Position numbers and translations under genes: made by a program. A stretch of 64,000 nt of DNA from an uncultured Rikenellaceae bacterium (GTDB taxonomy: Bacteria; Bacteroidota; Bacteroidia; Bacteroidales; VadinHA17). The notes beneath the pieces were generated by a model, which saw only the letters and a program-made list of their open reading frames with translations, searched no databases and was not told the DNA's origin. The DNA lies in NCBI GenBank assembly GCA_964577305.1, contig CAZNYS010000005.1:36193-100192 (forward strand), read 5' to 3'. Shown piece by piece: positions 3,166 to 11,810 of the stretch (position 1 is its first letter; every line of letters begins with the position of its first letter).

Positions 3166-3957
3166 TTGAAAAGACGCGCATTTATAACAACGGGAAGCCT
3201 CGGTGCACTCGGACTTAGCTTAAGTGATATTTCTGTTGCTGAAAGTGCAGACAACAAACCTGCTGACAGCCGAAAGAAAATACTGATTTCAGGTGGTGGA
3301 TTAAATAAATCCTTTATCACTTATCTTAATAAGCTTATAGGTAAAAAGAAGCCCCGTTTGTGTTTTCTGCCCACGGCAGCTGCTGATGACCCGCGGGTAG
3401 CAGTTTACTGGTACCAACTATGTGCAGATCTTGATGTGGTACCATATGTACAGAATATGTTCATCACAAGTTATTACATGAAAGAATCTTTTGAAGATGT
3501 TTTGCTGTCAATGGACGGAATAGTTGTGGGCGGTGGAAATACTCTTAATATGCTTGCCATATGGAAAGCACAGGGTATAGATAAGGTTCTTTACAAAGCC
3601 TGGGAAAAAGGAATAATCCTCTCCGGGGGTAGTGCCGGTTCATTATGCTGGTTCGAGGAAGGTACAACGGATTCAAGGCCAAAGGTGCTTACGAAAATAG
3701 AATGCCTGGGATTTCTTGAAGGGTCTCACTCTCCACATTATGATGGCGAAGAAGAACGAAGACCCAGGTATCATAATCTTATAAAATCAGGTGAACTGAA
3801 ACCTGGCTATGCGGTGGATAATAATGCTGCAATCTTATTTATTGACAACAAAGTAAGCGAGGTAATTGCAAGCGATAATCATAGTAATGCATATTATGTC
3901 GAATTAGTAGATGGAGAGATAAAGGAAACGGTTCTCAAACCGGATAAAATCCTGTAA
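3166..3957 (+). CDS. Peptidase S51 (dipeptidase E / cyanophycinase-like, class-I glutamine amidotransferase fold) with twin-arginine signal
   Basis: N-terminus MKRRAFITTGSLGALGLS is Tat-like. GIVVGGGNTLNMLAIW and LSGGSAGSLCWFEEG resemble the S51 nucleophile-elbow region. Confidence 0.6.
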   Translation: MKRRAFITTGSLGALGLSLSDISVAESADNKPADSRKKILISGGGLNKSFITYLNKLIGKKKPRLCFLPTAAADDPRVAVYWYQLCADLDVVPYVQNMFITSYYMKESFEDVLLSMDGIVVGGGNTLNMLAIWKAQGIDKVLYKAWEKGIILSGGSAGSLCWFEEGTTDSRPKVLTKIECLGFLEGSHSPHYDGEEERRPRYHNLIKSGELKPGYAVDNNAAILFIDNKVSEVIASDNHSNAYYVELVDGEIKETVLKPDKIL

Positions 3958-7475: not shown

Positions 7476-7521
7476 AAGATTAACGATTTTAGAATTTCTT
7501 GAATCTTAAATCGTTAATCTT
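7476..7521. terminator. Bidirectional hairpin between convergent genes
   Basis: aagattaacgattt (7476..7489) is perfectly complementary to aaatcgttaatctt (7508..7521): a 14-bp stem. Confidence 0.6.
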
Positions 7522-9983: not shown

Positions 9984-11216
9984 ATGAACAGATTACTTAT
10001 TCTTATTATGTCAGGAATACTGGTCCTGTCATACTCATGCGGAACCAGGGATCAGTCAGGCAAGAAACTGGAGGTTGAAAATTACTTTTCAGTTGACAGT
10101 TCTGAGATAGCTGTAATGGCATATTACATGGCCAGGAATAATTATGCACCGGAAGAAATACCGGTTGGAAATCTAACCCACATAATTTTTTCATTCACTG
10201 AAGTGATAGACAATAAGATGGCTTTTAAGCATCCTGAATCAGGGGAAAATCTCAGGCAACTGGTAATACAAAGACAAAGGAACCCTGGCCTGAAAGTAAT
10301 GGTCGCGTGCGGCGGATGGGGCGGATCGGGTGGATTCTCAGATATGGCTGCTACCGTGGAAAGTCGTATAATATTTGTTGAAAGCGTAATTGATTTTATC
10401 AATGAATATGATCTTGACGGATTGGATATAGATTGGGAATATCCGGGTTTACCGGGTATAGGTAATCCTTACCGGCCTGAAGACAAAGAGAATTTTACAG
10501 CTCTTATGAAAGAATTAAGGGAAGCAATGGACGCAACAGGGAAAAAGCTTACTCTTACATTTGCGGCAGCAGGATGGGATAAATATTTCGATAATATTGA
10601 AACTGTTGAAGTAATGAAATACGCTGATTATATAAATCTAATGACATATGACTTTGTTGGCGGAAATCAACCTTATACTGCCCACCATACAAACCTTGGC
10701 CTTATAAGCCTTGACGACCTGAAAGGGACTGCTTACATGCAACATATCAATAACAGCATAATAAATAAGGATGAACCGGACTGGCAGCCCAGATCGATAG
10801 AAGGAATAGTGAATTTCTGTCTTGGACTTGGTGTCGATAAAGAACAGGTAGTAATAGGAGCTGCTTTTTATGGCAAGTCATGGAAGGTGAAAACGACAGA
10901 AAACAACGGTCTTTACCAGGCTGCCGAAGGTACCCAGAAGGGATGGGCATCATATGCTGCCATACGGGATAGTATGGAGAATAAGAATGGTTATACAAGG
11001 TTCTGGGACGAAAAAGCAAAAGCACCGTATATTTTCAATATGTCTGACAGCTTATTCATCACATATGATGATACCGTATCGGTAAGGCTTAAAGCCAGGT
11101 ATGCAATTGACAATAATCTGGGCGGCATTATGTTCTGGGAGCAGTCGCAGGACACGAAAAAGGAACACAGTCTGCTGGATATAATCTTTGACGAGGCGGG
11201 AAATGGTGAGAAGTGA
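9984..11216 (+). CDS. Glycoside hydrolase family 18 (chitinase / endo-beta-N-acetylglucosaminidase-like) lipoprotein
   Basis: GH18 catalytic motif DGLDIDWEYPG; lipobox LVLSYSCG. Confidence 0.85.
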   Translation: MNRLLILIMSGILVLSYSCGTRDQSGKKLEVENYFSVDSSEIAVMAYYMARNNYAPEEIPVGNLTHIIFSFTEVIDNKMAFKHPESGENLRQLVIQRQRNPGLKVMVACGGWGGSGGFSDMAATVESRIIFVESVIDFINEYDLDGLDIDWEYPGLPGIGNPYRPEDKENFTALMKELREAMDATGKKLTLTFAAAGWDKYFDNIETVEVMKYADYINLMTYDFVGGNQPYTAHHTNLGLISLDDLKGTAYMQHINNSIINKDEPDWQPRSIEGIVNFCLGLGVDKEQVVIGAAFYGKSWKVKTTENNGLYQAAEGTQKGWASYAAIRDSMENKNGYTRFWDEKAKAPYIFNMSDSLFITYDDTVSVRLKARYAIDNNLGGIMFWEQSQDTKKEHSLLDIIFDEAGNGEK

Positions 11217-11226
11217 ACCACTCGAT

Positions 11227-11404
11227 GGGGCTGTCTCATAAGTCCTCTAACTACCCCCTCCTCGACCTTACGGTCGGGATACCCCTCCTTTCAAAAGGAG
11301 GGGAAATGGCTGATATACAATACTATAACTTTCTCCTCCTCTTTAGAGGAGGAGTACCCTGACCGACAGGTCAGGGGGAGGTGGTAGACTTATGAGACAG
11401 CCCC
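11227..11404. repeat. 178-bp nested palindromic element: 18-bp perfect outer stem enclosing four hairpins
   Basis: The outer stem is ggggctgtctcataagtc (11227..11244) pairing with gacttatgagacagcccc (11387..11404). The inner hairpins are at 11263..11276 (cgacc/ggtcg), 11282..11303 (cccctcctt/aaggagggg), 11333..11354 (ctcctcctc/gaggaggag) and 11357..11376 (ccctgacc/ggtcaggg). The element fills the convergent intergenic space. Confidence 0.8.
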
Positions 11405-11417
11405 AATCAAGATGAGA

Positions 11418-11810
11418 CTAGAACAACTCCTTGGGGAATAGCACATCCTCTCCTTTTATGGCACCGTGCAAACGGTAATATACTTCTCCGGTGTTTGATT
11501 CAAGAAAAAAGTTCCACTGGTTAATCCCCGGGGTTTCTGAATGCGTCCTCCTCAGATAAAGTCTTTCATTAATATTTAATTCCAGCTCACCATTCACATA
11601 AATACCTATTTTACCATAATTGGATTCCATTGTGGTTTTCAGCCAGACGACATCAGGATCAAGCAATCCTTCACCTTCAACACGACGGTAATCAAGTAAA
11701 TTACCCACATACTTGCGTGTAACCATAAGCTGTTCCTCCTGAAAGCCAGGCTCACTGACCGAGCAGGCATTAATTATCACTAAAATCATTATAAGTCCAG
11801 CGATCTTCAT
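11418..11810 (-). CDS. Small lipoprotein, unknown function
   Basis: 130 aa; signal plus lipobox (VIINACS); no recognisable motif. Confidence 0.55.
   Translation of the reverse strand: MKIAGLIMILVIINACSVSEPGFQEEQLMVTRKYVGNLLDYRRVEGEGLLDPDVVWLKTTMESNYGKIGIYVNGELELNINERLYLRRTHSETPGINQWNFFLESNTGEVYYRLHGAIKGEDVLFPKELF

Follow-up and report, generated by a model that had tools for sequence, protein, structure and literature searches.

Is the 178-bp palindrome that separates two convergent genes in this uncultured Rikenellaceae bacterium a mobile element, an ornate terminator or a structured RNA? The palindrome occupies positions 11227-11404 of the stretch of DNA that was analyzed (64,000 nucleotides, hereafter the window, to which all unlabeled coordinates refer). 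A preliminary description of the sequence had preferred a MITE (miniature inverted-repeat transposable element) or foldback element and offered a cruciform or cloverleaf RNA as the alternative. From the sequence comparisons reported below we conclude, with a probability of about 0.87, that the window element is one copy of a multi-copy, non-coding MITE of the IS1182 type.

Architecture and gene context

The features of the locus are as follows.

9984-11216, plus strand: upstream convergent gene, glycoside hydrolase family 18 (GH18; Pfam PF00704, E 2e-73); synteny kept in relatives
11217-11226: residual spacer between the GH18 stop and the element, accactcgat, 10 nt
11227-11244, plus strand: left terminal inverted repeat GGGGCTGTCTCATAAGTC, IS1182-type end; exact match, fits the IS1182-family end consensus RRGGYTGTCYCAWAAG
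11263-11276: hairpin A, left arm, CGACC-TTAC-GGTCG; stem cgacc/ggtcg 11263-11267/11272-11276
11282-11303: hairpin C, CCCCTCCTTT-CA-AAAGGAGGGG; stem 11282-11291/11294-11303 (repeat finder)
11304-11332: AT-rich non-palindromic center
11333-11354: hairpin B, CTCCTCCTCT-TT-AGAGGAGGAG; stem 11333-11342/11345-11354 (repeat finder)
11357-11376: hairpin D, CCCTGACC-GACA-GGTCAGGG, hypervariable in the family; stem 11357-11364/11369-11376 (repeat finder)
11387-11404, minus strand: right terminal inverted repeat, exact reverse complement of the left one; exact match
11405-11417: residual spacer from the element to the 130-aa ORF stop, aatcaagatgaga, 13 nt
11418-11810, minus strand: downstream convergent gene, 130-aa protein with a signal-peptide-like N-terminus; ORF of the same length at the same position in relatives

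The 178-bp element thus combines perfect 18-bp terminal inverted repeats with four internal hairpins and an AT-rich center, and in these respects the preliminary description was accurate: the two terminal repeats are exact, and all four hairpins are present in the sequence, the three longer ones being recovered by a repeat finder. The terminal repeat matched nothing else in the 64 kb when up to 3 mismatches were allowed (0.01 matches expected by chance). The arms had been called mirror images of each other, and beyond the terminal repeats they do contain inverted copies of 52 nt (75% complementary) and 32 nt (84%); the flanks ctcgat and atcaag continue the palindrome imperfectly, as had also been noted. 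Single-strand folding gave -112 kcal/mol for the plus strand and -120 kcal/mol for the minus strand, with z about -12 relative to shuffled sequences.

The Shine-Dalgarno-like AAGGAGG tracts, described earlier as sequestered, do lie within stems. Hairpin C holds an AGGAGG tract with an ATG (11306-11308) 4 nt behind it, and the frame that starts there, the sole ATG-started frame inside the element, has 18 codons. Only one ORF of at least 60 aa touches the element (10991-11239, minus strand, 82 aa), and it lies almost wholly within the GH18 gene. An Rfam scan of the region with permissive E-values gave a best score of 22 bits against a threshold of 80 and returned only chance-level miRNA and sRNA matches.

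The element fills the gap between the two convergent genes, as had been claimed, and no second hairpin is left between their stop codons. Part of the left residual spacer is complementary to the right one, and the two could be the remnant of a targeted hairpin. The 130-aa protein gave no match in a Pfam search. A terminator scan made no call in the element, and neither the foldback nor any internal hairpin is followed by a U-run on either strand. Without a U-run, present in multiple copies and missing from the spacer of relatives, the element does not have the properties of an intrinsic bidirectional terminator.

A family of copies at unrelated loci

To find copies elsewhere, metagenome contigs were scanned with an interior pattern consisting of hairpin A and the start of the next hairpin. 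This returned 29 stretches, four of which (L118, L119, L127 and L143) were unrelated chance matches and were set aside. The copy number was among the things that the preliminary description had proposed to check. Nine loci, including the window's own, carry copies that are 89-98% identical to the window element and have the same ends, and about ten loci carry diverged members, all with different flanks. The full-length close copies are at L121, L123/125/126, L129, L133/139/144, L138 and L142. Identity to the window copy was 98.3% for L138 and L121 (over 178 nt), 94.4% for L123/125/126, 93.3% for L133/139 and L129, and 89% for L142. Two close copies, L134/140 and L131, are cut down. The homology shared between copies begins exactly at the GGGG of the left terminal repeat. 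The diverged members are at L145, L146, L122, L136, L141, L137, L135, L124/132, L128 and L120, and several of them end in the canonical IS1182-like GAGGCTGTCTCAAAAGTG. Two family copies, L121 and L142, occur on one 176-kb contig. Furthermore, contigs of the JGI metagenomes 3300031355, 3300032029 and 3300031643 encode the identical GH18 protein, and all of them have the element.

One MITE copy, in L131 (ca. 310-420), appears to lie within a piece of a second copy or to be joined to one. The sequence on its left, ...CCCCCTGACGCTCACTTCGTTCGGTCAGGGTA, corresponds to the hairpin-D region of a copy like that of L142, and the junction falls at the base of a hairpin.

The locus in relatives

Five contigs from relatives were compared, representing four distinct spacer sequences; their GH18 proteins are 79-87% identical to that of the window, and those with NCBI names are Bacteroidales MAGs. 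The gene order DPP-IV peptidase, GH18, 130-aa ORF is kept in all five. The orthologous spacers between GH18 and the 130-aa ORF, 111-185 nt long, contain no copy of the element and have other palindromes instead. An empty site could not be reconstructed from these spacers, which are too diverged to align.

The palindromes in the spacers of the relatives are themselves of more than one kind. A different long palindrome built of GGTTTGAA/GGTTTGAAC units (GGTTTGAAGGTTTGAACGTTTGAT ... ATCAAACGATCAAACC) was seen at L147 3731-3915, L148 3719-3873, L150 2271-2430 and L151 2245-2404, and L149 has yet another that is distinct from this type. The spacer appears to be a hot spot for the turnover of palindromic elements.

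The terminal repeats are IS1182-family ends

Nine annotated IS1182 elements were fetched and their ends located. In the Bacillota and Bacteroidota members the ends are AAGGGGCTGTCCCAAAAG and AAGAGGCTGTCCCAAAAG in a Paenibacillus element, AAAGAGGTTGTCCCAAAAG in ISBce1, TGAGGTTGTGTCAAAACG in ISBf3, AAAGAGGCTGTCCGAAAAG in a Bernardetia element and GAAGAGGCTGTCTCAAAAG in ISMsp1, the last being compared with the window element as GAGGCTGTCTCAAAAG. The window end GGGGCTGTCTCATAAG matched ISMsp1 and the Paenibacillus element at 14 of 16 positions, and diverged members of the MITE family matched the ISMsp1 end at 16 of 16. The window element has the end form RRGGYTGTCYCAAAAG that is found in the fetched Bacillota and Bacteroidota members, and the derived IS1182 end consensus matches just the two ends of the element in the whole 64 kb. 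The resemblance to ISMsp1, ISBf3, ISBce1 and the Bernardetia and Paenibacillus elements is confined to the terminal 16 nt; these annotated elements differ in being 1.7-1.85 kb long, in encoding a transposase with DUF772 and DDE_Tnp_1_6 domains and in having interiors unrelated to the MITE. A comparison of the interior with the fetched IS sequences likewise gave no match; the link to the IS family lies in 16-24 nt at the ends.

Potential autonomous partners with the same ends were found outside the window's genome, in three places. In the Bacteroidales MAG Tobar15.5-16.5m-G9 (L017, L042, L056), the left end of a multi-copy IS1182-type element reads the same, for 24 nt, as the right end of the window element with its flanking base (11382-11405). 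In that MAG GGGGCTGTCTCATAAGTCTACCA has at least 5 copies, which run into contig ends, and 145 nt after it an ORF begins with MSTTRSKVVFKDYNNKQNLLLPPSFEE; against residues 4-25 of the ISMsp1 transposase this peptide shows 64% identity (E 2e-7, single comparison). A Chlorobiota MAG (L102) has the exact 18-mer followed by the hairpin-plus-T-run typical of IS1182 ends and then by the N-terminus of an IS1182 transposase. In L091, from Paenibacillus phyllosphaerae, a decayed transposase of ca. 1.1 kb lies between the 18-mer and a degenerate inverted copy of it; the transposase fragments matched Pfam DUF772 and, below the curated cut-off, DDE_Tnp_1_6, and by tblastn they matched genes annotated as IS1182-family transposase in 1,620 plasmid records. 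A search of the 64-kb window found no transposase, and a protein search with the 54-aa transposase N-terminus of L102 yielded no candidates.

The IS1016 group of IS1595, which has GGGgctg ends, was considered as the parent and dropped, since the transposase fragments beside the 18-mer are of the IS1182 type. The AGGAGG-N4-ATG of hairpin C could be imagined as a relic of the ribosome-binding site of a parent transposase. This is speculation only: L102 has GGAGG before its start codon, but the Bacteroidales IS has none there and the ATG is lost in diverged copies.

Most of the annotated IS1182 elements that were compared (L113-L117; L102 1080-1110) have, at one end or at both, a terminal repeat that pairs with a nearby complement and is followed by a T-run. 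Such ends resemble terminator hairpins.

Taken together, the element has terminal inverted repeats, 178 bp without coding capacity, multiple copies, a presence/absence pattern and a partner with the same ends, as a MITE should. The preferred reading of the preliminary description is borne out by copies at unrelated loci, by the absence from the orthologous spacer and by IS1182-family ends. It had also named a match to a known MITE family as a result that would tell against its reading; the ends do place the element in a known IS family, but no previously named MITE family was found. As far as could be found, this is a previously unnamed Bacteroidales MITE family of the IS1182 type. The element is an ordinary mobile element and not a new RNA or regulatory device, and in annotation the spacer should carry the label of a mobile-element copy and not that of a regulatory RNA or unusual terminator.

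The finding extends known biology and introduces no new principle. IS1182-derived MITEs have already been reported in Methanosarcina (PMC3852290). The Methanosarcina acetivorans MITEs, with ISMac2 as their partner (Kamoun et al. 2013, PMC3852290), resemble the window element in being non-autonomous and assigned to an IS1182 partner. They are 160-169 bp long, with inverted repeats of 25-26 bp and direct repeats of 4 or 0 bp (PMC3852290). They differ in being archaeal and in that no nested four-hairpin interior is reported for them; this comparison is one of descriptions and not of sequences.

The same 18-bp end in several phyla

The exact 18-mer was scanned in one genome per bacterial species, which gave at least 109 loci. 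About 17 exact matches are expected by chance in the 596 Gb and two strands, so some single matches may be noise. Three observations show that most are not. Among the loci listed, the 18-mer marks the outer boundary of short repeated elements, with unique sequence beyond it and an inner sequence that varies with lineage. At many loci a complete element of 118-450 bp is closed by an inverted copy with 0-4 mismatches, and several MAGs have many copies, often at contig ends. The hosts listed are Peribacillus, Gottfriedia, the Bacillus cereus group, Paenibacillus and several Bacteroidales and Saprospiraceae MAGs, together with Kapaibacteria, Ignavibacteria, Chlorobiota and Leptotrichia. The interiors of the other 18-mer-bounded elements are unrelated to that of the window element. 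Clustering of ORFs across the 109 listed loci revealed no recurrent transposase beside the small elements, which indicates that they are non-autonomous. A single 18-bp end is common to many small elements that are otherwise unrelated; they occur in Bacillota, Bacteroidota, Chlorobiota and Ignavibacteria/Kapaibacteria, always at gene 3' ends.

Other searches with the end sequence were less productive. Viral contigs contained no match to the 18-mer, and BLAST of the minimal repeat-loop-repeat palindrome against plasmids gave 10 weak, uninformative records. When the end was searched as text in the literature, its 13-mers occurred in no paper and its 11-mers matched human and other unrelated primers.

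A minimal repeat-loop-repeat palindrome of the 18-mer, 44-45 bp long, was observed in Bacillales and one Bacteroidota MAG (L002 7027-7071; L064 4368-4411; L010, L055, L076 and L100). The L002 copy, with an A-rich stretch before it and a T-run after it, resembles an ordinary bidirectional terminator, and some such 'terminators' may be minimal derivatives of IS1182 ends. Hairpins of the form CCCCTC...GAGGGG, similar to the polypyrimidine/polypurine hairpins B and C of the window element, were also seen in unrelated 18-mer MITE families of Kapaibacterium (L028, L048, L104) and Saprospiraceae (L108).

Target sites and mode of insertion

A target-site duplication was sought at about 36 complete elements and in two aligned families, and none was found. 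Within the aligned families homology runs exactly from GGGG to CCCC, and no direct repeat flanks any copy. The absence of a duplication agrees with the insertion mode of IS1272 and TnSha1, members of the IS1182 family that insert into terminator hairpins by blunt cuts, cause no duplication and delete the target in part (Furi et al. 2016, PMC4923244). Their target hairpins are terminators confirmed by RNA-seq (PMC4923244). Palindrome targeting by other IS1182-family members is attributed to the Siguier 2015 review, as cited in PMC4923244.

The positions of the copies relative to genes were also determined. In the window family, convergent genes flank 8 of 15 loci and tandem genes flank the others, and most copies start 3-60 nt after a stop codon. 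For all families together (42 elements, with crude ORF calling) none was in an ORF, and 15 were between convergent, 18 between tandem and 2 between divergent genes. A gene 3' end adjoins 33 of the 35 classified elements, and many of the 42 start within about 50 nt of a stop codon. The flanks showed marginally more complementarity than permuted flanks (-3.68 vs -2.92 kcal/mol, p = 0.048).

The three bases outside the GGGG are non-random in the window family: G, then T/A, then T/A, often GTA or GAT (window 11224-11226, L138, L129, L145, L131). They form no direct repeat; a weak 3-nt extension of the ends or a target preference would account for them.

To judge from the identity of the ends, an IS1182-type transposase would recognize the 18-bp terminal repeats. 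The element most likely inserted into the hairpin of a terminator common to the convergent GH18 and 130-aa genes, in the manner of IS1272 and TnSha1. Such an insertion would make no target duplication and would remove part of the target, and the presence of only 10 and 13 nt of spacer would follow from this partial deletion. The window element shares with the staphylococcal IS1272 and TnSha1 (PMC4923244) the IS family as judged by end sequence, the lack of a visible target duplication, a position of the kind that transcription-terminator hairpins occupy and the small remaining spacer that partial target deletion would leave. It differs from them in having no transposase, in its length of 178 bp and in its Bacteroidales host, and at the window locus we infer hairpin insertion from the gene context and the 23 nt of remaining spacer. 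As to its origin, the arms are homologous over a long distance, which suggests that an inverted duplication of one IS end gave rise to the element.

The occurrence of the 18-bp end on many unrelated elements, at gene 3' ends and across phyla, suggests that the hairpin targeting known from staphylococcal IS1272 is general in the IS1182 family. If it is, IS1182-derived MITEs may contribute widely to the turnover of 3' UTRs and terminators, as a source of change that has been little catalogued.

Conservation of the interior and alternative explanations

An alignment of 10 family members, 82-98% identical overall, revealed an uneven distribution of changes. Hairpin B is invariant at 18 of 22 positions and hairpin C at 16 of 22, and only 6 nt in one of the two were fixed by the search pattern; the left terminal repeat is invariant at just 7 of 18. 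The two hairpins with their GGAGG/CCTCC, Shine-Dalgarno-like tracts are therefore conserved more than the terminal repeats. This is a point against the MITE explanation, as it is not predicted for a purely selfish element. Within the interior, diverged copies vary most in the AT-rich center. The stem of hairpin A is kept by paired changes in diverged copies (L146: CGGCC..GGCCG), and hairpin D is swapped for CCCCCGAGTACTCGGGGG or CCCTGACTGAACGAAGTGAGCGTCAGGG in otherwise near-identical copies, with pairing always kept. The conservation of hairpins B and C could come from transposase binding or from the young age of the copies. That the conserved interior consists of transposase binding sites or has an RNA function at the level of the host is possible but unproven.

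The variants of hairpin D were compared in the window (11357-11376), L126, L139, L129, L142 and L145. The forms CCCTGACCGACAGGTCAGGG, CCCCCGAGTACTCGGGGG and CCCTGACTGAACGAAGTGAGCGTCAGGG occur in copies that are 93-98% identical elsewhere, and each is a GC-rich hairpin.

Both convergent mRNAs probably end in the very stable foldback, which could plausibly act as exonuclease barrier or weak terminator. This leads to the strongest of the alternatives, which is compatible with the MITE explanation: the element would be an exapted MITE that is now kept as the 3' end, terminator or stabilizer of both mRNAs, and the conserved GGAGG/CCTCC hairpins would act at the RNA level. It would account for an element that fills the whole spacer with no other hairpin between the stop codons, for the location of family copies at gene 3' ends throughout, for hairpins B and C that are nearly invariant while terminal repeats and center drift, and for the pairing that hairpins A and D retain despite sequence change. 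The missing U-run after the foldback or internal hairpins on either strand and the negative terminator scan speak against it, as do the other possible sources of the conservation of B and C, namely transposase binding, young copies and the 6 nt required by the search pattern. We regard exaptation, including its RNA-level component, as a tentative proposal with perhaps one chance in three or somewhat less.

A bolder generalization, which we consider doubtful, is that IS1182-type MITEs are cross-phylum 'mobile terminators' that home to terminator hairpins, delete them and substitute their own foldback, leaving host genes reliant on them for the formation of 3' ends. If this were true, host or transposase selection would be acting on the nearly invariant GGAGG/CCTCC hairpins and on the hypervariable hairpin D, which would then serve as functional RNA or DNA modules and not be neutral filler.

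Small palindromic repeats in intergenic regions are also known from REPIN/REP sequences and the Correia elements of Neisseria, which are often located at gene 3' ends and can influence termination or the stability of mRNA. REPINs, which are species-specific, require RAYT tyrosine transposases, and Correia elements duplicate a TA target. Neither group has the ends of the window element. An element of the REP/REPIN type, moved by a RAYT (IS200-like tyrosine transposase) and not by a DDE transposase, would explain why a palindromic repeat lies between genes, at their 3' ends, and shows no target duplications, and the GTA that precedes several copies gives a junction GTAGGGG recalling the GTAG of REP sequences. 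Other 18-mer families, however, have no GTA in their flanks, the same ends bound transposase-carrying IS1182 elements, the element, with its 178 nt and complex interior, does not resemble a REP doublet, and the 18-mer is common to several phyla whereas REP sequences are species-specific; this makes a REP/REPIN origin very improbable.

Least probable of all is the origin in situ, at this locus, of a structured RNA gene or an ornate bidirectional terminator, for which the extreme stability (z about -12) and the site between convergent genes would speak, but which is contradicted by many near-identical copies at unrelated loci, by the orthologous spacers of relatives without the element and by the absence of an Rfam match and a U-run. 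The copies at unrelated loci exclude the single-copy ornate terminator that the preliminary description had named as the result that would overturn its reading, and with no matching Rfam family its cruciform or cloverleaf RNA is not needed to explain the element.

The window contains a second palindrome at 7476-7521, AAGATTAACGATTTTAGAAT ... AATCTTAAATCGTTAATCTT. It has an exact 20-mer, AAGATTAACGATTTAAGATT, in common with DNA that abuts the MITE copy of L136 (ca. 3885-3915), where the DNA with this 20-mer seems to replace one end of the copy. This palindrome may represent a further family of small repeats, in the same genome or in a related one.
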